Assembly: GCA_964432405.1 (NCBI GenBank)
Contig: CAYSNH010000001.1
Coordinates: forward strand, 90,001-122,000
DNA length: 32,000 nt
From: an uncultured Candidatus Saccharibacteria bacterium
Lineage (GTDB): Bacteria; Patescibacteriota; Minisyncoccia; UBA6257; UBA11618
Reading direction: 5' to 3'
Shown here: positions 11,862 through 31,859 of the stretch, piece by piece
Numbering within the stretch: the stretch's first letter is position 1
Layout of the letters: each line of letters begins with the position of its first letter
Made by a program: the position numbers and the translations under genes
Notes under the pieces: generated by a model
What the model was told of the DNA's origin: nothing
What the model saw: the letters and a program-made list of their open reading frames with translations, nothing else
Databases searched by the model: none

Positions 11862-14519
11862 TTATTTTTTCATTGTTAAACGATAAAAAAATTTTCTAGT
11901 CTCCTCCACCACAACAATTAATAACGAGACCCCTAATGCCAAAAGCCAATCTGATAAAGTCAGAGGCACCGTTTGAAAAATCGATTGAAAAGGCTTCCAA
12001 TAAACGACTACTAACTGAAGCATTATCACAACAAAAGTTGCTCCTAGCAAAACCTTGTTACTCAAAGGATTGGTCATAAAAATAGATTTACTCTCTGAGC
12101 GAACATTCCATGCATTAAACCATTGCATAATAGCTAACGTGGTCAATGACATGGTCAATGCCTTAGGCAAATTATCTTGATAGTTTAAACTAAAAACAAT
12201 AAGAGCACCAATCATCATCGAAGTCCCCATAAGAAAGCTTCGTAAAACCGTTGTCTTATCAATAAAATATTTTCTCGAATGTTCAAAAGTGCCCTTTAAT
12301 AACTCCTTACCTCTTGGCTCCCAAGCAAAAGAAATATCCAAAAATCCATCGGTAACTAAGTTAAGCCAAATAATTTGAGTAGGAACCAACAACAAAGGCC
12401 ATCCCAACAAAATTGATCCAAAAATAGCCATCACCTCACCGATACTCGTAGAAAATAAATAAAGAATAGTCTTCTTAATCGTCTGATAAACATGTCTCCC
12501 TTCTTCAACGGCGGCAACAATTGTACCAAAATTATCGTCCAGCAAAATAATATCGCTCGCATCCTTAGAAACACTAGTGCCGATACCTCCCATAGCCACT
12601 CCTAAGTCAGCCGCTACTAGCGAAGGAGCATCATTAACTCCATCACCCGTCATAGCCACAATCTCTCCTTTGCTTCTATAAGCATCAATGATAGTAGTCT
12701 TGTTTCTAGGGCTAATACGAGCAAAAACCGTTACCTTGTCGATAACTCTACTTAACTCCCTCTTGCTCATCCTCTCCAACTCCCTATCAGTCAATACCAG
12801 GTCTCCTTCTTTATAAATTCCAGCCTGCCTAGCGATAGCTATGGCTGTTAATTTATGATCCCCTGTAATCATAATGGTTCTCATCCCCGCTTTTTTAACT
12901 CTCTTAACCGCACTCACCACCTCCTTACGAATTGCATCCTCCATAGCATAAAAACCTGCAAAAACCATCTCCGGAATACCTTTTCTAGATTTCAAATCGG
13001 CATTAGCAAAACTAAAAGCCAATATACGCAAGCCATTTTGAGAAAGTTGATTAACAATCTCTTTCATACGTTCTTTTTCCTTATCGCTAAAAACAACAAC
13101 TTTTCCATCTCTCCAAATCTTTGCACAAGCATTCAAAACTGTTTCTGGAGCTCCAACGACAGTAGTGTATTTATTATCATTCATTTGATGGACGGTTACA
13201 TGATATTTACTCACATGATCAAATGGAATTTCTGCTACCTGCGGATATTTATTCTCCAAAACATCTTTAGGTAAGCCTAACTTCTTACCCAATACCAACA
13301 TCGCCACCTCGGTTGGATCACCAATAACACGACCCTTGCTCAAACGAGCGCTAGCACAAAAAGAAGCTATCTGAGCTGCTATATACAAATCAGAATTTTG
13401 ACTAGCTTTAACCTCCCTGCCTCCCAACAAAGCCTTACCCTTAAATTTAAAACCTTCGCCGGTAATTTCAAAAAAATGATTATTAATAAAAACCTTGCGA
13501 ATCACCATTTCATTACGAGTAATAGTTCCTGTCTTATCTACCGCAATCACCCGCGCCTGACCCAAAGCCTCAACCGCCTGCAATCTTTTAACTAGAGCGT
13601 TACGACGCGCCATTCTCATAACACCAAAAGCTAAGATCAAAGTACTAACAATTGGTAATCCCTCAGGAATAACAGAAACCGCTAATGTGACTGCTACCAA
13701 AAACATATCTTGCAACCCATCCCCCTTAGCAGCTGCGATGCCCAAAAGAGCCAAGGAAACTACTATCACCGCCCCAATAACCAAATGAGAAAGCTCTCTT
13801 AAATTGGCTTGAAAAGGAATTTCTGTATCAATGTCAGCAATCAAACTGCTGATCTTACCAATCTCAGTATTTAGACCAGTTCCCACTACCAAAGCCTTCG
13901 CATTACCACCAACAACATTAGTTCCCTTAAAAACCATATTACTCCTCTCTACCACTGGCACTCTTTTTTTACTAAAATAACCTACAATTTTCTTTACAGG
14001 AGTAGACTCACCAGTTAAGGAGGCTTCATCAATTCTAAGATTATTAGCAATAATTAAACGACAGTCAGCTGACACCTTATCTCCCTCCATAAGAACTATA
14101 ACGTCTCCCGGTACCAAAACCTTATCAGACATCAAAGACTCCTTACCATCTCTCAAAACAGTCGCAAAAGTCTCTACAAAATTCTGTAAAGCAATTAAAG
14201 CGCTTTGAGCACGTCCTTCCTGAATAGACCCCACTATCGCGTTAAACGCCAAAACAAACAGAATAACCCCACCATCAACATATTCACCCAACCAAAAAAC
14301 AATTGCGGCAGCAATTAACAATATATAAATAAGAGAGTTTTTAAATTGACGAAAAAAAATAATCCACCAGCTATCAATTTCTGGCTTTGGCAATTCATTA
14401 GGGCCAAAGGATTGGAGACGCTTTTCCGCCCATTCACCAGTTAGACCCTTCTCTGATGTATTAAGTTTTTTATAGACTTCTTTTAAAGGAAGACGATGCC
14501 AAGCGGTATTATTCGCCAT
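11862..14519 (-). CDS. P2-type cation-transporting ATPase (Ca2+-ATPase-like)
   Basis: The motifs are TGES (LTGESTPV), PEGLP in TM4, the phosphorylation site DKTGTIT, and MITGDH and TGDGVNDAPSL. Confidence 0.93.
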   Translation of the reverse strand: MANNTAWHRLPLKEVYKKLNTSEKGLTGEWAEKRLQSFGPNELPKPEIDSWWIIFFRQFKNSLIYILLIAAAIVFWLGEYVDGGVILFVLAFNAIVGSIQEGRAQSALIALQNFVETFATVLRDGKESLMSDKVLVPGDVIVLMEGDKVSADCRLIIANNLRIDEASLTGESTPVKKIVGYFSKKRVPVVERSNMVFKGTNVVGGNAKALVVGTGLNTEIGKISSLIADIDTEIPFQANLRELSHLVIGAVIVVSLALLGIAAAKGDGLQDMFLVAVTLAVSVIPEGLPIVSTLILAFGVMRMARRNALVKRLQAVEALGQARVIAVDKTGTITRNEMVIRKVFINNHFFEITGEGFKFKGKALLGGREVKASQNSDLYIAAQIASFCASARLSKGRVIGDPTEVAMLVLGKKLGLPKDVLENKYPQVAEIPFDHVSKYHVTVHQMNDNKYTTVVGAPETVLNACAKIWRDGKVVVFSDKEKERMKEIVNQLSQNGLRILAFSFANADLKSRKGIPEMVFAGFYAMEDAIRKEVVSAVKRVKKAGMRTIMITGDHKLTAIAIARQAGIYKEGDLVLTDRELERMSKRELSRVIDKVTVFARISPRNKTTIIDAYRSKGEIVAMTGDGVNDAPSLVAADLGVAMGGIGTSVSKDASDIILLDDNFGTIVAAVEEGRHVYQTIKKTILYLFSTSIGEVMAIFGSILLGWPLLLVPTQIIWLNLVTDGFLDISFAWEPRGKELLKGTFEHSRKYFIDKTTVLRSFLMGTSMMIGALIVFSLNYQDNLPKALTMSLTTLAIMQWFNAWNVRSESKSIFMTNPLSNKVLLGATFVVIMLQLVVVYWKPFQSIFQTVPLTLSDWLLALGVSLLIVVVEETRKFFYRLTMKK

Positions 14520-15232: not shown

Positions 15233-15236
15233 TTTG

Positions 15237-15308
15237 GGTGCCTAACGGGACTCGAACCCGCATCGCCACTGCCACAGAGTGGAGCTCTGCCCTTGAGCTA
15301 TAGGCACC
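15237..15308 (-). tRNA. tRNA-His (anticodon GTG), encoded G-1:C73, no encoded CCA
   Basis: Manual cloverleaf: G-1, GTGCCTA, TA, GCTC-AAGGGCA-GAGC, T, CCACT-CTGTGGC-AGTGG, CGAT, GCGGG-TTCGAGT-CCCGT, TAGGCAC, C. Confidence 0.9.
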
Positions 15309-15311
15309 ATG

Positions 15312-15383
15312 TGCCGCGGGGCGGAATCGAACCACCGACGCTCGCCTCTTCAGGGCGACGCTCTACCACTGAGCTACCGCGGC
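15312..15383 (-). tRNA. tRNA-Phe (anticodon GAA), no encoded CCA
   Basis: Manual cloverleaf: GCCGCGG, TA, GCTC-AGTGGTA-GAGC, G, TCGCC-CTGAAGA-GGCGA, GCGTC, GGTGG-TTCGATT-CCGCC, CCGCGGC, A. It lies 3 nt from tRNA-His. Confidence 0.9.
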
Positions 15384-15393
15384 TAATGGCCCT

Positions 15394-15422
15394 ATTATAC
15401 GTTAATAGAGCCTTTCAGTCAA
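15394..15422 (-). promoter_or_regulatory. Near-consensus promoter TTGACT-17-TATAAT driving tRNA-Phe/tRNA-His and the downstream operon
   Basis: The minus strand reads TTGACT (15422..15417), a 17-nt spacer, then TATAAT (15399..15394). The tRNA-Phe 5' end is 10 nt downstream. Confidence 0.6.
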
Positions 15423-15863
15423 TTAAAAACTCCCTTCTAAAACATGAGCTTCAGGATTATTATCCAACCCTAAAGACTTAGTTTCTTGAGTAATGACGAC
15501 CTTATTATAATTAGAATAATCTTCATTAGAAGAAAACTCCAATACATAACTACCATCAACACTCTTATTTAATTGACCTGTAGAAATAAATTTAAATGGC
15601 AATGACCTCACTATCCACCCTTCGTAAAACTTATCAGCCGATGGGTCAGCTAGCTGAGCGGTAACAGTGTGAACATAATTACCATCATCATAATTTCTAG
15701 TTGCTATTCCAGAACCAGAAAAATCACCTACCGACTCTAAAGAAGTTTCTTCCATTTGATTTTCAGATTCTCTCGGCATTACATCCATTCCTGACTGCAT
15801 AAACCACCAACCAAAAACTCCTACAATCACTACAACTAAGATCCAAATCCAAACTTTATTCAT
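15423..15863 (-). CDS. Membrane-anchored hypothetical protein (N-terminal TM plus extracytoplasmic domain, possibly RskA-C-like)
   Basis: The TM helix is VWIWILVVVIVGVFGWWF. The segment DKFYEGWIVRSLPFKFISTGQL recalls the Y-x-W-hydrophobic core of anti-sigma-K RskA C-terminal domains, from memory only. Confidence 0.55.
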   Translation of the reverse strand: MNKVWIWILVVVIVGVFGWWFMQSGMDVMPRESENQMEETSLESVGDFSGSGIATRNYDDGNYVHTVTAQLADPSADKFYEGWIVRSLPFKFISTGQLNKSVDGSYVLEFSSNEDYSNYNKVVITQETKSLGLDNNPEAHVLEGSF

Positions 15864-15915
15864 ATTTATGTATCTAGTTAATATTTCGACCTTAATTACT
15901 AATCTTTCTTAATTG

Positions 15916-15987
15916 TACCCCCTGAAGGAATCGAACCCTCATAAACGGGGTAGAAACCCGTTACTTTATCCATTAAGCTAAGGGGGC
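15916..15987 (-). tRNA. tRNA-Arg (anticodon TCT), no encoded CCA
   Basis: Manual cloverleaf: GCCCCCT, TA, GCTT-AATGGATA-AAGT, A, ACGGG-TTTCTAC-CCCGT, TTAT, GAGGG-TTCGATT-CCTTC, AGGGGGT, A. Confidence 0.85.
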
Positions 15988-15991
15988 ATAT

Positions 15992-16065
15992 TGGTCGGGC
16001 TGCTGAGAATCGAACTCAGACTACAGACTCCCAAAGTCCGCGTACTACCACTATACTACAGCCCG
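15992..16065 (-). tRNA. tRNA-Pro (anticodon TGG), CCA encoded
   Basis: Manual cloverleaf: CGGGCTG, TA, GTAT-AGTGGTA-GTAC, G, CGGAC-TTTGGGA-GTCTG, TAGT, CTGAG-TTCGATT-CTCAG, CAGCCCG, A, CCA. Confidence 0.9.
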
Positions 16066-16073
16066 TGAACCCT

Positions 16074-16102
16074 ATAATACCCTAAAATGTCTAATATTTC
16101 AA
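16074..16102 (-). promoter_or_regulatory. Promoter TTGAAA-17-TATTAT upstream of tRNA-Pro/tRNA-Arg
   Basis: The minus strand reads TTGAAA (16102..16097), a 17-nt spacer, then TATTAT (16079..16074). The tRNA-Pro 5' end is 8 nt downstream. Confidence 0.5.
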
Positions 16103-16110
16103 TGATAAAC

Positions 16111-16713
16111 CTAGTCAAAATACTTATCAAACTTATTCATTGAAGAGTCAAAGTTTTGATTAAGCTTATTAATCATTTTAATAGACTCGTTGATCTCTGT
16201 CACCAGCTTTTTCACTTTATGCTCACTATTATGAATACGTCCTTCAAACTTCCCTCTTAATAATTCAAAAAGCTCGTTCAAGGTTTCATGATATAAGATC
16301 AGATGATTCACTAACTGAACCTCATAACCAACGGCTTCTGTTGCTAATGTTCGTGCTCGAGATGGCTCAATAGAAGACAATAAGGTAGCCATTGTTCCTA
16401 GCTGACTTGATAAGACCACTGCCTCCTGACGAGCCTCACCATTCCTCTCTAGTTCTTGAACTACTAATTTTAAAGCCGAGCTATAATTTTTCTTTTCATC
16501 AAACTGACTAATCTGTTCTAAGCCAGCTAAAGATTGGTGAGCTAAAAATACTATTTTTCTTGCTGTAACTGCACCATTAACTCGAGCTTCAATAAACTCT
16601 TCCGGAACATTTTCATCCCCCAACCAAAAGCCCTGGGCTAAAAAATATACCGCTATAGCAGCTATTAAAATTGTTAGAGTTGTTAAAGCAACTCTTGTAT
16701 TACGTGTAATCAT
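16111..16713 (-). CDS. Membrane-anchored all-alpha hypothetical protein
   Basis: It is a 200-aa ORF with one N-terminal TM helix (VALTTLTILIAAIAVYFLAQGFW). The rest is helical and charged, and I recognise no motif. Confidence 0.55.
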   Translation of the reverse strand: MITRNTRVALTTLTILIAAIAVYFLAQGFWLGDENVPEEFIEARVNGAVTARKIVFLAHQSLAGLEQISQFDEKKNYSSALKLVVQELERNGEARQEAVVLSSQLGTMATLLSSIEPSRARTLATEAVGYEVQLVNHLILYHETLNELFELLRGKFEGRIHNSEHKVKKLVTEINESIKMINKLNQNFDSSMNKFDKYFD

Positions 16714-16786
16714 TAGATAAACTATTTTGCCTCAAATACTAGTAAAAATCAAGATTTTTATGTATCTTATTAATTATATCTAACAA

Positions 16787-16860
16787 GCGGGAGTAGCACA
16801 GTGGTAGTGCATCTGCCTTCCAAGCAGAAGACGCGGGTTCGATTCCCGTCTCCCGCTCCA
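16787..16860 (+). tRNA. tRNA-Gly (anticodon TCC), CCA encoded
   Basis: Manual cloverleaf: GCGGGAG, TA, GCAC-AGTGGTA-GTGC, A, TCTGC-CTTCCAA-GCAGA, AGAC, GCGGG-TTCGATT-CCCGT, CTCCCGC, T, CCA. Confidence 0.9.
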
Positions 16861-19909: not shown

Positions 19910-21469
19910 ATGTCAAAACGATCTACTATATTAATAATTACCGATGGTTGGGGTATAGGTCGAAACGACCCTACTAACCCCGTTTACATTGCTAAGCCAA
20001 AAACCATCAATCACATTAAAGCAAATTATCTTAGCGGTTCTCTTCAGGCCTCTGGTATTGCTGTTGGCTTACCCTGGAACGAAGAAGGCAATAGTGAGGT
20101 TGGTCATTTAACTATTGGAGCTGGCAAAGTTCTCTACCAACACTATCCTCGCATCACCCTCTCTATTGAGGATAAGTCCTTCTTAAAAAATAAAGCCCTG
20201 ATAGCTGCCTTTAATCACGCCATTAAAAATAAATCAGCCGTCAACTTAATTGGCATTCTCTCAGAAGGTAATATTCACGCTTCCTCAGAACATTTAGTAG
20301 CATTGATAGATTTTGCTAAAAAGAAAAAAGCACCTCTTGTTAAACTTCATTTGTTTGCCGACAGCAAAGACAGCCCCCCTAAAGGATTCCTTAATCTATT
20401 AAATGACCTCTATCAACAAATCGGGAAAAGTCCGACCGTTAAACTAGCTAGCCTCTCCGGTCGTTATTTCTCTATGGATCGCGATCATCATTGGGATCGC
20501 ACCAAAGAAGCATACAATGCACTTTTGGGTAAAAAAGAACTGATCAAAGATTTAAAAGCTTACATCGACTATCAATACAAGAGAGGTTTGAAAGATGACT
20601 TCATTACTCCTGTTTGCTTAGGAGAAGAACTGGATTCTATTAAAGATAATGAATCTATTATTTTCTTTAATTATAGAGAAGACAGCATTAGGCAGATTGC
20701 TGCTCCTTTCGTCCAAAAAGATTTCAAAGAATTTAAAACTCTCTCCTTAAAAAATATTCATCTGGTAACAATGACTAATTATTCCGATAGCTTTGATGCC
20801 AAAGTCGCCTTCCCTGCTAAAAAAGTCGTCAACTCTTTAGGAAAGGTTTTAGCTGATAATAATAAAATTCAATTAAGAGTGGCTGAAACAGAAAAATATG
20901 CTCACGTCACATACTTCTTCAACGGCTTTAAAGACAAGCCTTTTAAAAATGAATTTAGAATTTTAATTCCTTCTCGTAACATAGCCCGTCATGACGAGCA
21001 TCCAGAAATGATGGCTAGCGAGATATCCAATCGCATTATTCAAGCCATTGAAGAAAAAGAGGTTGATTTTATTGTTGGTAATTTTGCTAGTCCTGATATT
21101 ATTGCTCATACTGGCAATTTCGATGCTGCTATCGAAGCTATTAAAGTTGTTGATGATCAATTAGATAAAATTGTGAAAGCAGCTCTAGCCCATGATGCTA
21201 CTCTAATCATCACCGCTGATCATGGTAACGTGGAACGTATGATTCACCCTATGACTGGCAAAATAGAAACTAAGCATGATATCAGCCCCGTTCCTTTTTA
21301 TTTGATTGGTAATAAATTTAAAAAACCAAAAACTCCAGCGGTTGTAAAAAGAATTGAAAATGAAACTATTGGCATGCTCTCTGATATTGCTCCTACTATT
21401 CTCGGTTTAATGAAAATAAAAAAACCTTCTGAGATGACTGGTCAAAATTTAATTGATAGATTACAATAA
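19910..21469 (+). CDS. gpmI: 2,3-bisphosphoglycerate-independent phosphoglycerate mutase
   Basis: The motifs are ILIITDGWG, GNSEVGHLTIGAG, ETEKYAHVTYFFNGF and ITADHGN. Confidence 0.93.
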   Translation: MSKRSTILIITDGWGIGRNDPTNPVYIAKPKTINHIKANYLSGSLQASGIAVGLPWNEEGNSEVGHLTIGAGKVLYQHYPRITLSIEDKSFLKNKALIAAFNHAIKNKSAVNLIGILSEGNIHASSEHLVALIDFAKKKKAPLVKLHLFADSKDSPPKGFLNLLNDLYQQIGKSPTVKLASLSGRYFSMDRDHHWDRTKEAYNALLGKKELIKDLKAYIDYQYKRGLKDDFITPVCLGEELDSIKDNESIIFFNYREDSIRQIAAPFVQKDFKEFKTLSLKNIHLVTMTNYSDSFDAKVAFPAKKVVNSLGKVLADNNKIQLRVAETEKYAHVTYFFNGFKDKPFKNEFRILIPSRNIARHDEHPEMMASEISNRIIQAIEEKEVDFIVGNFASPDIIAHTGNFDAAIEAIKVVDDQLDKIVKAALAHDATLIITADHGNVERMIHPMTGKIETKHDISPVPFYLIGNKFKKPKTPAVVKRIENETIGMLSDIAPTILGLMKIKKPSEMTGQNLIDRLQ

Positions 21470-26811: not shown

Positions 26812-27795
26812 ATGAAACCCAATCTACTTTCAGGAATTCAACCTACCGGACGACTTCACTTAGGAAATTATTTAGGGGCTCTTGATAACTTTGTAAAGCT
26901 TCAAAACTCTGGCCGCTACAACTGCCTTTTTTTTATTGCCGATCTGCACTCGCTAACTGAAGATTTCAAACCCAAAGACAAGACCAAGCAGATTATTAAT
27001 TTAATGGCTGATTATCTAGCTGCCGGTCTTAACCCAAAAAAATCTACCATCTTCATTCAGTCACAAATACCAGCAAACTCAGAACTTGCTTGGATTTTAA
27101 ATACTATTACTCCTTTTGGTGAATTAAGTCGGATGACTCAATTTAAAGATAAGTCAAAAGACCAGTCTTCTAATATTAACGTTGGTCTTTTCTCCTACCC
27201 TATTCTTATGACTGCGGATGTAATTCTCTACGATGCTCACTTTGTTCCAGTGGGAGAAGACCAGATTCAACATCTAGAACTATCAAGAATCTTAACTAGA
27301 AAGTTTAATAAAAAGTTTGGTAAGACATTTATAGAACCTCAACCCCTACTCACTGAAGTACCTCGTCTCATGAGCTTAAATAATCCTCATAACAAGATGT
27401 CTAAATCAAGACCTCAGGAATGTATTTTTGTTGATGACTCTCCAGCTATCATTAAGAAAAAAGTCATGACCGCCACTACCGATTCTGGAAAAGAAATTAA
27501 ATACGATCTTAAAAAGAAGGCTGGTGTCAGCAACCTTATAACCATTTACGCCTCTCTTTCGGGCAAAAGCATAAAGGGAGTCGAGAAAGAATTTAAAGAA
27601 GAGAATTATGCTAGTTTTAAAAAATCACTAGCCGATCTAATCAATCAGCACTTCTCTGATTATCGTAAAAAGAAAAAGCAACTCTTAGCTAATCCTGAAA
27701 AATTAAAAAAGATAGCGGCTCAAGGAGCCAAAAAGGTTAATAAGATAGCTAATTCTAAAATAACCAAGGTTAGAAATCGCTTAGGACTTCTTTAA
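26812..27795 (+). CDS. trpS: Tryptophan--tRNA ligase
   Basis: The motifs are GIQPTGRLHLGNYLGA (HIGH-type), GEDQIQHLELSR and KMSKS. Confidence 0.95.
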   Translation: MKPNLLSGIQPTGRLHLGNYLGALDNFVKLQNSGRYNCLFFIADLHSLTEDFKPKDKTKQIINLMADYLAAGLNPKKSTIFIQSQIPANSELAWILNTITPFGELSRMTQFKDKSKDQSSNINVGLFSYPILMTADVILYDAHFVPVGEDQIQHLELSRILTRKFNKKFGKTFIEPQPLLTEVPRLMSLNNPHNKMSKSRPQECIFVDDSPAIIKKKVMTATTDSGKEIKYDLKKKAGVSNLITIYASLSGKSIKGVEKEFKEENYASFKKSLADLINQHFSDYRKKKKQLLANPEKLKKIAAQGAKKVNKIANSKITKVRNRLGLL

Positions 27796-30700
27796 ACCCA
27801 ACCAAACTTCTTGATTACCTATTTTAGTAGAAAGGCCGGCCTCGGCCTTTTCTGATTTTTTAAAATAAATATCTGTCGCATTAATATCAACAGCAAACTG
27901 CTTGTCACTCTCAACAGCTGACTTCAACGCAGTTGGAACATTCAGAAAAAGACCGATTTTGTCATGAGGTCTTAAACCAGCATCCTGTCGTAATCCTTGA
28001 ACAGAACGCACCAAGTCTCTTACCCACCCTTCTTTTTGTAAGGCAGGAGTTATTTTAATATCAAGCATCAATTCCTCATCTAAACCATCATCCTTTTTAA
28101 TAGCCTTTACATTAATCTCATCAGCCAAAATAGCCAACAACTCCTTGTTCTTAATTTGAAGATCTTTCACCATTAAGCTAGCTAATGGCTGACGAACTTT
28201 AATACCCGCTGATGCTCTTTTTGCTAATGCCAAACTGGCTAACTGCCTAACCTCTGCCATCTCATCAATTAATTTTTCATCAATAAGTTTTTTATTAGCT
28301 TTTGGCCAATCCTCTAAATGAATTGATAAGCTCAAATCCAATCCTTTAATTTTTTTTCTAAAAGACTGATGTAATGCTTCAGCAAAAAATGGAGCAAAAG
28401 GAGCTACTAATTTATTAACCACCAAAATGGTCTCTTGAAGAATTGGTAAAGCCTCCGGTCTTTTACGAGATCGCCTAATATACCATCGAGACAAATCATC
28501 AATAAACGACTCCACCTCTTTTGCGGCATCTACCACCTGATAATTTTCTATATGATTAGTAACCTTGATGACCGTATCATTAAGACGAGCCTTAACCCAT
28601 TTATCTAATACACTCTCCTTACCATCACTAGCATGGTTCTTGTTATTATAAGTTTCGAGAAAAACATATGAGTTATATAACAACATTAAAGAACGTCTTA
28701 AAGCCTTACCAACATCATGCTCATCAAACTTTTTTACATCCCCTGGTTGATTAACTGTAAAGAAGTACCAGCGCAAAGCATCAACTCCATGCTTATTAAT
28801 TAAATCCCAAGGATCAACAACATTGCCTTTTGACTTAGACATCTTCTGACCCCTCTTATCTAAAATCAATCCCAAAGAAATAACATTTTTGTAACAAAGC
28901 TTCTTATCCAATAATGTAGCTATGGCTAATAATGTATAAAACCAACCTCGAGTCTGGTCCATAGCCTCGCAAATATAATCAGCCGGAAACTGACCTCCTT
29001 TATTAATCAATTCTTTATTTTCAAAAGGATAATGCCATTGAGCAAAAGGCATTGACCCAGAATCAAACCAAACATCCGCCACCTCACTAACTCTCTTCAT
29101 CTTTCCATCACACTTTGAACACTGCAAAATAATATTATCAATATAAGGCCGATGAAGATCTAGCTCTCCTTTATCATCAAGAGGCCAATTATTAGCTCTA
29201 ACCTGAACCTTGCCAGCAGTCTCCAAAGACCCCTTATCTAAAGCCTCCTCATCAGACCAACCCTCTAAAGAGCTTTGCAACATCCACAAAGGATCGCCAT
29301 GACTAATAATGATAATGTTTTTATTCTTATGTTTTTTATTAGACTTTTGAAAAAAATCTAACATTCTCTTCTTTACATCATTTAAATTCTCACCTTTATC
29401 AGGCGTTTTATTAAAATGCTCTAAAGAATCATCAAAGAACTTATGATAATCTTCGATCTTGCCACCATTAAAGACCCCGCTATTTAACTCCACTAATTGA
29501 TCATCGTAAACGACAGGCACTCCCACAGCCTCGCTAATAATATCAGCCACCTGCTTAGTTCTCTGATAAGGAGAGGCATAAATTACATCTATTTTTTTAG
29601 CTTTAAAAAACTTCGCTAACTTATTAGCCTCCTTGACCCCTTTTTCAGTTAGTTTAGATTTTTTATCCGCTCTCTTACCTGAAGAAATCCAACCCTCTTC
29701 ATTATGAGTCGCCTCTGGATGACGAACTAGCCAGAAATTGTTCTCATTATTCTTAGAGTGTTTATTTAAATCGTCTAAACCGCCAACCACTTGATAGTGA
29801 TCGCATTTCTGACACTCCCAAATAGGTAGCGGAGTTCCCCAGTAACGATCTCTAGAGATAGCCCAGTCCTTTGCTTCTTTAATCCAATTACCAAACCTTC
29901 CTTCTTTAATATGATCCGGCACCCAATTAATCTGCTCATTACTTTTTATTAACTCCTTCCTCAATCGACTCATTTCAAAGAACCAAGATTGACGAGCTAG
30001 ATACATTAAGGGTTGAGAACAACGCCAACAGAAAGGATATTCATGCTCAATAGTTGTTTGATGATATAAAAACCCTCTCTTTTGAAGATCCTCCTTAATA
30101 TCATCATCAGCTTGCTTAATAAACTTGCCAGCTCCCGGCAAGCCTTTTTTCATAATACCGTCTTCACTAACAGTTACTGGAATATCACCCTCTTCCATCT
30201 CTTCCTTCATTATATTCAAATCCTCCTCACCAAAAGCCGGCGCCATGTGAACTAGACCAGTACCATCCTCGGCAGAAACAAATTCAGCTCCCACTACCTT
30301 ATGAGGTCCTTTATTCTTATAAAGCGCCTCGTATTCTTTTCCTATCAAATCCTTACCCTTAACCTTATCTACAACCTCACTATCAACTTCTGGAGGAGCA
30401 TTAACAGACCACAGATAATCCTTACCTACTTTATATTTGTTGTATATAAGATCTGGCTGGACTGCTATTGCAACGTTAGCTGGCAAAGTCCAAGGCGTAG
30501 TAGTCCACACCAGCAAATACTCATTCTTAGCACCTTTAATTTTAAATTTTATATAAACAGAAGGGTCTTCGGTAAGCTTGTAAACTCCTGGCTGCCCCAT
30601 TTCATGACTAGAAAGAGGTGTCTGACAACGCATGCAAAAAGGAACTACCTTATAAAATTTCTTCAAATACCCCTTCTTATCAACTTGCTGAAAAATCCAC

Positions 30701-31173
30701 CAAAGAGTTTCTAAATATTTATTATCATAAGTAATGTAAGCTTGATCAAAGTCTAACCAAAAGCCAATTCTTTCAGTTAACTTCTCCCACTCATCTTTAT
30801 ACTTCCAAACAGACTCTTTAGCCTTCTTATTAAACTTATCAATTCCATAGTCCTCAATCGCCTGTCTATTTTTTAAGCCTAATTTTTTTTCTACCTCAAT
30901 CTCCACCGGTAAGCCTTGTGTATCCCAACCAGCTCGTCGAGAAATATAATAGCCTTGCATCGTTTTATAACGCAAAACCACATCCTTAAAAACACGTGCT
31001 AACACGTGATGAGTACCAGGTCGCCCATTAGCAGTCGGTGGGCCCTCATAAAAAACAAAGCTTTTCTTTTTATCTCTTTCTAGACTTTTTTCAAAGATTT
31101 TATTTTTCTTCCAAAACTCAAGAACCTTCTCTTCAATTTCTGGCAAGTTAAATCTTTCAGAGCCTTTAAGCAT
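27781..31173 (-). CDS. ileS: Isoleucine--tRNA ligase (type 2) carrying an inserted histidine-phosphatase-superfamily domain
   Basis: The motifs are GPPTANGRPGTHH, editing-domain WTTTPWTLPAN and GTGLVHMAPAFGEED, then WAISRDRYWGTPLPIW, DVWFDSGSMP and KMSKSKGN. Residues about 480-660 form an extra domain with the motifs LVRHPEATHN / SPYQRTKQ / ELNSGVFNG / ISHGDP. Confidence 0.95.
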   Translation of the reverse strand: MLKGSERFNLPEIEEKVLEFWKKNKIFEKSLERDKKKSFVFYEGPPTANGRPGTHHVLARVFKDVVLRYKTMQGYYISRRAGWDTQGLPVEIEVEKKLGLKNRQAIEDYGIDKFNKKAKESVWKYKDEWEKLTERIGFWLDFDQAYITYDNKYLETLWWIFQQVDKKGYLKKFYKVVPFCMRCQTPLSSHEMGQPGVYKLTEDPSVYIKFKIKGAKNEYLLVWTTTPWTLPANVAIAVQPDLIYNKYKVGKDYLWSVNAPPEVDSEVVDKVKGKDLIGKEYEALYKNKGPHKVVGAEFVSAEDGTGLVHMAPAFGEEDLNIMKEEMEEGDIPVTVSEDGIMKKGLPGAGKFIKQADDDIKEDLQKRGFLYHQTTIEHEYPFCWRCSQPLMYLARQSWFFEMSRLRKELIKSNEQINWVPDHIKEGRFGNWIKEAKDWAISRDRYWGTPLPIWECQKCDHYQVVGGLDDLNKHSKNNENNFWLVRHPEATHNEEGWISSGKRADKKSKLTEKGVKEANKLAKFFKAKKIDVIYASPYQRTKQVADIISEAVGVPVVYDDQLVELNSGVFNGGKIEDYHKFFDDSLEHFNKTPDKGENLNDVKKRMLDFFQKSNKKHKNKNIIIISHGDPLWMLQSSLEGWSDEEALDKGSLETAGKVQVRANNWPLDDKGELDLHRPYIDNIILQCSKCDGKMKRVSEVADVWFDSGSMPFAQWHYPFENKELINKGGQFPADYICEAMDQTRGWFYTLLAIATLLDKKLCYKNVISLGLILDKRGQKMSKSKGNVVDPWDLINKHGVDALRWYFFTVNQPGDVKKFDEHDVGKALRRSLMLLYNSYVFLETYNNKNHASDGKESVLDKWVKARLNDTVIKVTNHIENYQVVDAAKEVESFIDDLSRWYIRRSRKRPEALPILQETILVVNKLVAPFAPFFAEALHQSFRKKIKGLDLSLSIHLEDWPKANKKLIDEKLIDEMAEVRQLASLALAKRASAGIKVRQPLASLMVKDLQIKNKELLAILADEINVKAIKKDDGLDEELMLDIKITPALQKEGWVRDLVRSVQGLRQDAGLRPHDKIGLFLNVPTALKSAVESDKQFAVDINATDIYFKKSEKAEAGLSTKIGNQEVWLGLKKS

Positions 31174-31196: not shown

Positions 31197-31859
31197 CTAA
31201 TCAGTCAAAAAATCTACACCCCAGGAACAAAAGCCGCACTCACTATGTGCTCGTGGCATTGGCCCTTGAATTAGCTCCGCTGCAGCTCGTACTACCCGAC
31301 GAGCTTTTTCAGAATCAGTAGCTACCTTCTTAACAACAACGTCAAACCTGGTCATCCCTCCCTCGCTAACTTCTTTAGAAATCCAATAGATAAGAAAAGC
31401 ATGACCAATATCAGGCATGTTATTTTCTTTAAGCATTAAGGCGTAACAATTCATCTGATTGAAATAATAATGCTCTCCACCCGGCTTTACATCATAACCT
31501 CGCGTCTTGTAATCAGCTGGTATATACAAGTCACCTTTGACCATCAAGTCATCTAAAGCGCCACTCAAAGTAGCCCCGCTCTCTGGATCGTTCCAAGTTA
31601 AACCAGTGCGCCAATTACGCCACCTATTCAAAGCCTCAACATCAGAAAACAACTCTGCCCCTTCAACCTCCCCCTCTATCTCCGGCGGCAACTTTCCTAC
31701 CGCTCGATATTTATCAAAATAAGTTTTAATTAAACCATCCATACCACCAGGCAAAGAAGGAAAAGGACCCATAGGTCGATGAACACCCATTTTCATTCGT
31801 AACCAAAAACATTTAGGACATTCGAGAAATAAATTTAAAGATGAGGGAGATAATCGCAT
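31197..31859 (-). CDS. PD-(D/E)XK nuclease superfamily protein (Cas4/RecB-like fold) with N- and C-terminal CxxC pairs
   Basis: The N-terminus has CPKC and the core reads GALDDL...IPADYKTRGY...QMNCYALML (D...D-x-K...Q-x3-Y). The C-terminus has CGFC. Its G+C content is visibly higher than its neighbours. It lies 23 nt upstream of ileS on the same strand. Confidence 0.7.
   Translation of the reverse strand: MRLSPSSLNLFLECPKCFWLRMKMGVHRPMGPFPSLPGGMDGLIKTYFDKYRAVGKLPPEIEGEVEGAELFSDVEALNRWRNWRTGLTWNDPESGATLSGALDDLMVKGDLYIPADYKTRGYDVKPGGEHYYFNQMNCYALMLKENNMPDIGHAFLIYWISKEVSEGGMTRFDVVVKKVATDSEKARRVVRAAAELIQGPMPRAHSECGFCSWGVDFLTD

Follow-up and report, generated by a model that had tools for sequence, protein, structure and literature searches.

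The stretch of DNA analysed here, which we call the window, comprises 32,000 nucleotides (nt) of contig CAYSNH010000001.1 from an uncultured Candidatus Saccharibacteria bacterium (positions 90,001 to 122,000, forward strand), and its minus strand carries an ileS open reading frame (ORF) encoding an isoleucyl-tRNA synthetase (IleRS) in which a complete histidine phosphatase domain is nested. Among Parcubacterial IleRS (Patescibacteria, or candidate phyla radiation) this nesting is a clade-wide trait, and in further IleRS lineages one to three phosphatase domains have been acquired, at differing sites. Judging from conserved residues and predicted structures, the domain would be an autonomous second catalytic module, a small PhoE/PspA-like histidine phosphatase lodged in the distal CP3 zinc-knuckle loop of a working type-2 IleRS (IleRS2), and its coupling to that host enzyme is the best overall explanation of the data, one that we hold with somewhat more than even confidence.

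The identity of the host enzyme was established with family models and solved structures. Searched as a whole protein, it scored above the cutoff of the NCBIfam model TIGR00392 (ileS; 846.5 vs. 621.4 bits), in two stretches separated by the insert, and in Pfam the tRNA-synt_1 match likewise fell into two pieces (amino acids (aa) 17-481, and again from about 670), followed by Anticodon_1 (aa 857-997, E=2.6e-25) and DUF5915 (aa 1009-1129). The best matches in the PDB were the type-2 enzymes of Priestia megaterium (8c8w and 8c8u) and Thermus thermophilus (1ile), with E values of about 1e-230, the type-1 enzyme of Staphylococcus aureus (1ffy) matching far more weakly (1e-83); the closeness of the IleRS2 structures, the DUF5915 C-terminus and the lack of a C-terminal zinc-binding domain all place the protein in type 2. 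The editing domain is recognizable at residues 198-380 by its match to 1wk8 and 1ue0, structures of the IleRS editing domain in isolation. The protein stayed far under the 1900-bit cutoffs of the MupA and MupB resistance exception models, and it scored 266 bits with ileS_w_GNAT (NF040702), whose cutoff is 1999, the Pfam scan giving no GNAT domain.

The motifs of the synthetase are well kept among the nested homologues. At the class I signature, alignment A2 shows no variation in P52 and H56 and hardly any in H55, the consensus of the nested clade being GIHH where the window has GTHH, and K777, M778, S779 and K780 of the KMSKS motif are invariant. This swapped GXHH motif is functional in IleRS2, to which it has been reported to confer hyper-resistance to mupirocin (PMC10485003). 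In the Thermus enzyme the CP3 subdomain bears a zinc motif (PMC7191050). Within the nested clade the first Cys pair of the knuckle (window aa 452-457, 29803..29820) varies, CxxC occurring in about one half of the sequences and C-x5-H (ECxKDxxH) in about one quarter; zinc binding may differ where the phosphatase is inserted.

In the alignment with 8c8w (1032 aa), window residues 9-475 correspond to residues 9-480 and window residues 670-1044 to residues 485-868, and the segment in between (aa 476-669) puts about 194 residues in place of about four in solved IleRS2. It lies in the CP3 zinc-knuckle loop, between C454/C457 and C685/C688 (Table 1). An earlier reading, made from the sequence alone (the sequence-only reading), had placed about 180 extra residues between the two Cys pairs; the alignment bears this out, fixes the insertion point in CP3 and shows that type-2 IleRS of solved structure lacks the segment. 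GC content is even over both junctions, with a slight dip to 0.32 inside the insert.

Table 1. Positions in the window of the ileS gene, of the parts and motifs of the synthetase and of the nested phosphatase.
Feature	Position	Strand	Basis
ileS ORF, type-2 IleRS with nested phosphatase	27781..31173	minus	1130 aa; ORF call, TIGR00392, PDB matches, AlphaFold2 (AF2) model
IleRS N-terminal part, aa 1-475 (first Rossmann half, CP core, CP1 editing, CP2, start of CP3)	29749..31173	minus	8c8w alignment
Class I signature, swapped form G53-T-H-H56 (GXHH, not HXGH)	31006..31017	minus	Sequence
CP3 zinc knuckle, first Cys pair C454-x-x-C457 (WECQKCDH)	29803..29814	minus	Sequence
Inserted segment, aa 476-669 (phosphatase and short linkers)	29167..29748	minus	Boundaries from 8c8w alignment
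His_Phos_1 (PF00300) core, aa 480-644	29242..29736	minus	Pfam, E=2.6e-34
Catalytic R484-H485 (phospho-accepting His; RHG motif, here RHP)	29719..29724	minus	R and H in 122/122
Second active-site Arg, R538	29560..29562	minus	122/122
Acid/base residue, E562	29488..29490	minus	E in 119, D in 3 of 122
Second catalytic His, H625 (SHGDPLW)	29299..29301	minus	122/122
IleRS C-terminal part, aa 670-1130 (rest of CP3, second Rossmann half, KMSKS, anticodon-binding and DUF5915 C-terminal domains)	27781..29166	minus	
CP3 zinc knuckle, second Cys pair C685-x-x-C688	29110..29121	minus	Alignment; invariant
KMSKS motif, aa 777-781	28831..28845	minus	Alignment of nested homologues

The insert is a member of branch 1 of the histidine phosphatase superfamily by its score against the family's hidden Markov model, its catalytic core and its alpha/beta fold. 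The full protein reached 119 bits against PF00300 (gathering cutoff 21.7), over model positions 1-166 of 194, and the isolated domain 123.9 bits (E=8.5e-36). The sequence-only reading had recognized a full branch-1 enzyme at 29194..29736, with all hallmarks in order, and both parts of that claim held: the extent agrees with the Pfam core, and the motifs follow each other as LVRHPEATHN (R484-H485), LTEKG (at 508), ASPYQRTKQ (R538), ELNSGVFNG (E562) and ISHGDP (H625). Conservation was taken from an alignment of 122 nested proteins, in which the insert measures 192-209 aa and, besides the catalytic residues, E595 and R603 are conserved throughout, H490 in 113 and N491 in 102; free-standing forms have D at the acid/base position. 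The Gly of the RHG motif is present in 75 of the 122 and replaced by P in four, including the window, and by C, T or A in others, so that the change from G to P already noted is real but a local quirk. Mean pairwise identity is 0.50 in the insert, as compared to 0.66-0.71 in the catalytic parts of IleRS and 0.48 in its C-terminal domain.

Structure prediction gave a concordant picture. The AF2 model of the full-length protein has a pLDDT of 89.2 and a pTM of 0.81, with well predicted linkers, and the domain alone (pLDDT 92.9) is predicted to fold as a histidine phosphatase. Foldseek found 289 PDB chains at E<=1e-3, with 4ij6, 4ij5, 9mmh, 6s2q and 1h2e at the top (TM 0.75-0.80); the structural neighbors are PspA, the riboflavin-pathway histidine phosphatase (HFP), PhoE, GpgP and CobC, with merely 18-26% identity, and the domain is colinear with PspA and PhoE across about 160 residues, its cap being near normal in size. 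Conservation and modelling together demonstrate a complete phosphatase with a confidently predicted fold, all catalytic residues of which would be under purifying selection and which, being complete and conserved, is very probably active. Since the catalytic residues are kept, the models are confident and the KMSKS motif and the editing and anticodon domains are retained, we conclude that the host IleRS and the phosphatase are both predicted to be intact.

The nested architecture is widespread. In a search with the full-length protein, the best 120 matches listed (1119-1219 aa, full coverage, 52-88% identity) all combined PF00133, PF00300, PF08264 and PF19302. They derive from NCBI, JGI, ENA and Logan assemblies (metagenome-assembled genomes), including the GW2011 genomes of 2015, and bear the names Parcubacteria, Paceibacterota, Harrisonbacteria, Colwellbacteria, Liptonbacteria and Minisyncoccota. 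The syntenic locus L001 (Patescibacteria UBA11618) has the same gene, with 83% identity in the insert. An assembly chimera is ruled out, because more than 120 independent assemblies and L001 share the same in-frame architecture; an intein or mobile insertion was likewise rejected, the insert being wholly of His_Phos_1 fold and having neither a HINT domain nor a match to an intein family. The NCBI pipeline labels the nested forms 'class I tRNA ligase family protein' and their insert-less relatives 'isoleucine--tRNA ligase', and the insert appears to cause this annotation downgrade of nested ileS genes.

The phosphatase also exists as a separate protein, and there too it keeps the company of ileS. 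Its closest free-standing homologues have about 190 aa and 36-46% identity to the insert, and in all four look-ups their gene lay directly upstream of an insert-less type-2 ileS, with a 4-base overlap in L005. A profile of the free form retrieved 80 metagenome loci, the arrangement of which was sorted by tblastn. The phosphatase gene stood upstream of ileS, on the same strand and mostly with a gap of -12 to +30 nt, in 39 of them; in 36 it was nested at the same place in CP3, with one half of IleRS on either side; ileS was convergent and less than 1 kb away from it in three, and the contig was too short for judgement in the remaining two. All 78 informative loci therefore show linkage to ileS, and the IleRS lineages concerned are only about 40% identical to each other. 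The IleRS of the split form is Parcubacterial as well (Nealsonbacteria, Pacebacteria, GW2011_GWC1_38_6).

On its other side the free phosphatase gene was directly preceded by argS in 30 of 35 informative loci, while among 30 nested loci argS immediately preceded ileS in 13 and lay no more than 4 kb away in eight; the ancestral order is therefore argS-HP-ileS, where HP stands for the histidine phosphatase. The free gene is flanked by two class Ia synthetase genes, argS and ileS, within a conserved Parcubacterial cluster, infC-smpB-...-argS-(His_Phos)-ileS-recO-...-class II aminoacyl-tRNA synthetase (aaRS), which was observed in L005, L009, L041, L055, L094 and most of L010-L089. The argS-HP-ileS cluster can be broken, since in L041 a restriction-modification cassette separates the phosphatase gene from ileS; the same split is seen in L037, an inversion splits the genes in L052 and L055, and in all these loci the phosphatase remains with argS. 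With the insertion of a HicAB pair in L005 it remains with ileS. The cassette (L041:3078-5157, also in L037) has a weak N6_Mtase match and a Tsp45I/DpnII-like endonuclease.

Nesting is the sole covalent form of phosphatase and IleRS that was seen. End-to-end HP-IleRS fusions were found in 0 of 39 loci, though stops and starts abut or overlap, and end-to-end ArgRS-HP fusions in 0 of 44; an ArgRS-nested phosphatase was not seen in the loci examined. Candidate 'split IleRS' intermediates, proteins of 540-770 aa with the domain at residue 2-30 or about 75, look like contig-edge or broken gene calls and were not counted as real, because their N-termini are a conserved internal Met (EMSxLR, MRHGE) or a V. 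In these assemblies the gene calls often divide IleRS into two or more ORFs (615+326 aa; 572+215 aa, as in KKP93841/KKP93840 of GW2011_GWA1_36_12 and the P0013 contig); most of these look like broken gene calls, and some may be a genuine split ileS.

An exhaustive search with the domain returned 11,589 matches at E<=1e-3, 26 of them at <=1e-30, and led to a second IleRS lineage with a canonical HYGH motif and the same infC-smpB-argS-ileS-recO synteny (L094). We infer, from the shared synteny only, that this lineage is Parcubacterial. In its proteins the number of nested His_Phos_1 domains varies from one to three and the insertion sites are four in all, the RH..R..E..H motifs being intact in each domain of the multi-copy forms. 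P0378 (L091:1932-6191, 1419 aa) has two, one of them in CP3 and the other where the catalytic core is followed by the anticodon domain. P0414 (L092:1711-4974; L093:1570-4833) has three: immediately behind the second Cys pair, in a zinc knuckle that is otherwise short and normal, between 'HYPFxN' and 'FIAEGLDQTRGWF', and after 'YANIDNW'. Copies inside one protein are just 27-37% identical to each other, and because of this low identity their sequences are best read as old or independent acquisitions and not as recent duplications. In P0414 an in-frame TAA lies within the third domain (L092:4972-4974; L093:4831-4833), after which the His_Phos_1 frame resumes; the two records may come from the same sample, and a nonsense mutation, readthrough or recoding are the options. 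A further protein, P0474 (L090:5238-9425, 1395 aa), has besides the CP3 phosphatase a nested P-loop kinase-like domain (aa ~735-900) that is flanked by 'SMPYA' and 'FIAEGLDQTRGWF' and has GACGAGKTT as its Walker A motif. This domain scored 32.8 bits with AAA_18 (cutoff 29.4) and 27.7 with AAA_33 (cutoff 27), and shows weak PDB similarity to adenosine phosphosulfate (APS) kinases, shikimate kinases and Pnkp1 (4XRP).

Nested and separate forms are interleaved in phylogeny. In a neighbor-joining IleRS tree (838 columns, 53 taxa, 100 bootstraps), of which only nodes with at least 95% support were accepted, one deep clade consists exclusively of separate-gene forms (100% support), and in a mixed clade the separate L039/L064/L052/L055/L077 are sister to the nested L075/L087/L078/L084 (100%), this pairing sitting within further nested lineages (95-99%). 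The nested L047 falls among the separate L010/L027/L034 (98%). A single origin of nesting was rejected on the interleaving of the two forms in this tree and in a neighbor-joining tree of the HP domain, and at least two switches between nested and separate states, of unassigned direction, are well supported.

Explanations other than a phosphatase coupled to IleRS were weighed against these observations. It is very improbable that the domain is a known enzyme in disguise, i.e., the organism's CobC, its cofactor-dependent phosphoglycerate mutase (dPGM) or a PspA-type phosphoserine phosphatase. These are its best-scoring NCBIfam subfamilies and its PDB relatives, and the likeness to CobC proposed in the sequence-only reading is reflected in the Foldseek result; the scores, however, fall far under the curated cutoffs for PspA-type phosphoserine phosphatase (NF045917, 86.5-90.9 vs. 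350 bits), archaeal dPGM (NF038349 dPGM_arch, 80-84 vs. 225) and CobC alpha-ribazole phosphatase (TIGR03162, 74-78 vs. 162.9), so that membership in CobC proper did not stand, and identity to solved members is as low as stated above. The general dPGM model (TIGR01258 pgm_1, 34-40 vs. 81.7 bits) and SixA (TIGR00249, 37.9 vs. 74.5, the match being confined to the N-terminal 70 residues) gave the same outcome. Moreover, the window encodes a cofactor-independent phosphoglycerate mutase (iPGM; 19910..21469), which makes a glycolytic mutase role unnecessary, and the domain was rejected as a missing mutase on this ground together with the failure of the dPGM models. dPGMs have 230-250 aa, with an extra insertion and a C-terminal tail, both of which are absent from the nested domain of about 190 aa, and cobalamin synthesis is unlikely in such reduced genomes. 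An artefact or selfish element, be it a chimeric join or an intein-like or mobile insert removed before the protein functions, is next to inconceivable: the insert is sharply delimited, folds as a unit by itself and shows a slight dip in GC, as such an element might, but the independent assemblies diverge down to 52% identity and keep it, its fold comes with neither HINT nor splicing motifs, and both linkers are conserved and predicted well. There is only a slim chance that the domain is a non-catalytic module, namely a sensor of phosphate or of a metabolite or a structural prop of CP3 that would act on IleRS allosterically and without turnover. The replaced Gly of the RHG motif, in the window and its closest relatives as P and elsewhere as C, T or A, would suit this, as would the often degenerate first Cys pair of the zinc knuckle, whose structural role the insert might take over. 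Nested, free and multi-copy forms nonetheless all keep R, H, R, E/D and H (with N491 in 102 of the 122 nested proteins), mere binding needs neither an acid/base residue nor both histidines, and a free-standing form is unable to serve as an intramolecular prop.

A hitch-hiking gene deserves more weight, although we consider it unlikely. An independent housekeeping phosphatase of small molecules would have come to lie by chance between argS and ileS in the Parcubacterial ancestor, and permissive IleRS loops would have allowed a nesting that yields co-expression and stability with no mechanistic tie to aminoacylation. In keeping with this, the nearest relatives are broad-specificity or metabolic enzymes (PspA, PhoE, GpgP, CobC and the riboflavin-pathway HFP), the free form exists as a separate protein in many lineages, the insertion sites differ, the gene keeps beside argS when ileS is displaced, and IleRS hosts other foreign domains, as in ileS_w_GNAT and in P0474 with its AAA_18 match. 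Chance proximity is however difficult to reconcile with a linkage to ileS that holds in every informative locus and across such divergent lineages, with repeated independent insertion at four sites and in up to three copies per protein, with the absence of the easily reached end-to-end fusions despite abutting genes (39 and 44 loci for the two neighbors), and with the fact that no ArgRS-nested form was seen. As a neutral hitch-hiker should give end-to-end fusions, and not insertions at four sites and in up to three copies, the phosphatase is likely to be functionally coupled to IleRS. The most telling evidence comes from the free-standing gene, the argS-HP-ileS cluster and the multi-copy variants, none of which the sequence-only reading could draw on.

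As an accessory hydrolase of IleRS, the phosphatase would act in cis where it is nested and in trans where it is encoded by the adjacent gene, and its nucleophile His485 would strip a phosphomonoester that blocks productive aminoacylation. The likeliest target would be a 2'/3'-phosphate or a pyrophosphate at the end of tRNA-Ile, such blocked ends being made by toxSAS toxins or RNA-cleaving toxins, and its removal would restore a chargeable 3'-OH beside the synthetic site. The tRNA-specific pyrophosphorylation of the 3'-CCA by the toxSAS toxin FaRel2 offers a precedent for a phosphate-blocked CCA end (PMC11559606). By analogy with it, we tentatively suggest that a phosphate or pyrophosphate block is removed from the tRNA-Ile end, even if this substrate is far from assured. 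The broader notion of a 'phospho-editing' or end-healing aaRS domain, which would act on tRNA-Ile and would have been recruited repeatedly in cis and in trans as an anti-toxin defence, is somewhat more doubtful; speculatively, the pairing of a phosphatase with a kinase-like domain in P0474 might echo end healing of the Pnkp type. Coupling could also take other forms. Clearance of the reaction products adenosine monophosphate (AMP) or pyrophosphate (PPi) is an unlikely but reasonable candidate, and there is a small chance each that IleRS itself is dephosphorylated or that a phosphorylated antimetabolite or inhibitor directed at IleRS is hydrolysed.

Several points weigh against a coupled phosphatase that acts on tRNA ends. 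Its closest relatives in sequence and structure are small-molecule phosphatases, with a normal-sized cap, and we know of no histidine phosphatase acting on RNA ends. The insertion sites are spread around the catalytic core, which argues that no exact geometry is needed and makes one exact geometry doubtful. Conserved gene order can be non-functional, as is the case for ribF-ileS-lspA in Proteobacteria. Because the phosphatase keeps with argS when ileS is displaced (L037/L041, L052/L055), its partner may be aaRS genes in general rather than IleRS alone. Finally, the nested kinase-like domain is a single example, and the trees were built by neighbor joining rather than by maximum likelihood.

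Comparison with known systems helps to place the protein. It is colinear over its full length with IleRS2 of known structure (8C8U/8C8W from P. megaterium; 1ILE), with which it shares CP1 editing, the CP3 zinc knuckle, KMSKS, the anticodon domain and a DUF5915-type C-terminus, and from which it differs by a whole second enzyme in the CP3 loop; the swapped GXHH motif is also that of the mupirocin-hyper-resistant IleRS2 (PMC10485003). With phosphatases of the PhoE/PspA type (1H2E, 4IJ5; CobC 6NRU, GpgP 4PZ9) the nested domain has in common the fold, the R-H...R...E...H set, a similar size and a similar cap length. The nested subfamily nonetheless stands apart from them in its low identity and its scores under all curated subfamily cutoffs, and in a signature of its own (RHxEAxHN with H490, SPY, SHGDPLW); it is found only inside IleRS or beside ileS, whereas the known PhoE/PspA enzymes are stand-alone metabolic proteins. 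An end-to-end counterpart is the RNase H/acid phosphatase (Rv2228c type, NF005567), in which a CobC-like His_Phos_1 is joined to a nucleic-acid enzyme: the window domain matches its phosphatase half with E=1.9e-19, but it is nested instead of fused, and the window scored 70 bits against a cutoff of 326.

Hydrolytic modules are familiar in aaRS, such as the CP1 of IleRS, ValRS and LeuRS, the INS of ProRS versus YbaK/ProXp, and AlaX, all of which hydrolyse aminoacyl esters on tRNA. The architecture described here resembles these editing modules in having a hydrolase in the connective region of the catalytic domain, free homologues in trans, and both arrangements within one clade; it differs in that the module has a phosphomonoesterase fold, for which no RNA or aminoacyl substrate is known. 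RNA end healing is carried out by the Pnkp kinase-phosphatase and by the HD-domain phosphatase/2',3'-cyclic phosphodiesterase of the bacterial CCA-adding enzyme. There too a phosphatase is joined to a tRNA-handling enzyme, and P0474 pairs phosphatase and kinase-like domains as Pnkp does, but the phosphatases of those systems are of the HAD, calcineurin-like or HD kinds instead of histidine phosphatases, and no ligase partner was seen here; any functional likeness drawn from this analogy would be speculation.

The curated family NF040702 (ileS_w_GNAT) also joins IleRS to an extra enzymatic domain, the accessory fold there being GNAT, and NCBIfam holds no equivalent model for a phosphatase-bearing IleRS. 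In the literature, including recent IleRS phylogenomics, we found no description of such an enzyme, and the phylogenomic work mentions neither a phosphatase nor Patescibacteria; the claim of an undescribed aaRS architecture made in the sequence-only reading apparently holds. What is apparently new is thus the phosphatase-bearing IleRS, while an aaRS with an accessory catalytic domain is an already known kind. The nested sequences have been public since 2015, with automatic Pfam labels.

The surroundings of the gene in the window differ in part from those of other lineages. Directly upstream of ileS, in the window and in L001, is a gene for a 220-aa protein of the PD-(D/E)XK nuclease family, which has a cluster of Cys residues at its C-terminus (31197..31859, minus strand), at the place where other lineages have argS. 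On the other side, the trpS ORF (26812..27795, plus strand) converges with ileS, with a 15-nt 3' overlap (27781..27795), and likewise in L001. The iPGM ORF mentioned above lies on the plus strand and matches Metalloenzyme and iPGM_N with E values of about 1e-60. Five tRNA genes (His-GTG, Phe-GAA, Arg-TCT, Pro-TGG, Gly-TCC) occupy 15236..16860, and no tRNA-Ile gene was found in the 32-kb window. A weak intein match in a P-type ATPase (11862..14519; 20 bits vs. 35.8) was judged to be noise.

An essential synthetase in a whole class of ultra-small, host-dependent bacteria would thus hold a second intact catalytic center, of a type not known to have been linked to aminoacylation, and the repeated recruitment of the phosphatase, be it by nesting (four sites, up to three copies) or as a neighboring gene, suggests that it serves IleRS indispensably. 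Accessory domains of aaRS have been a classic path to new biology, in editing, regulation and signalling. If the substrate were a tRNA end, the phosphatase would represent a new mechanism of tRNA quality control or of defence against toxins, and IleRS would be a combined machine for tRNA repair and charging; if it were AMP or PPi, the phosphatase would provide a novel way for energy-poor cells to clear products, and if it were IleRS itself, a built-in phospho-switch. The nested and the split forms offer a natural experimental pair.

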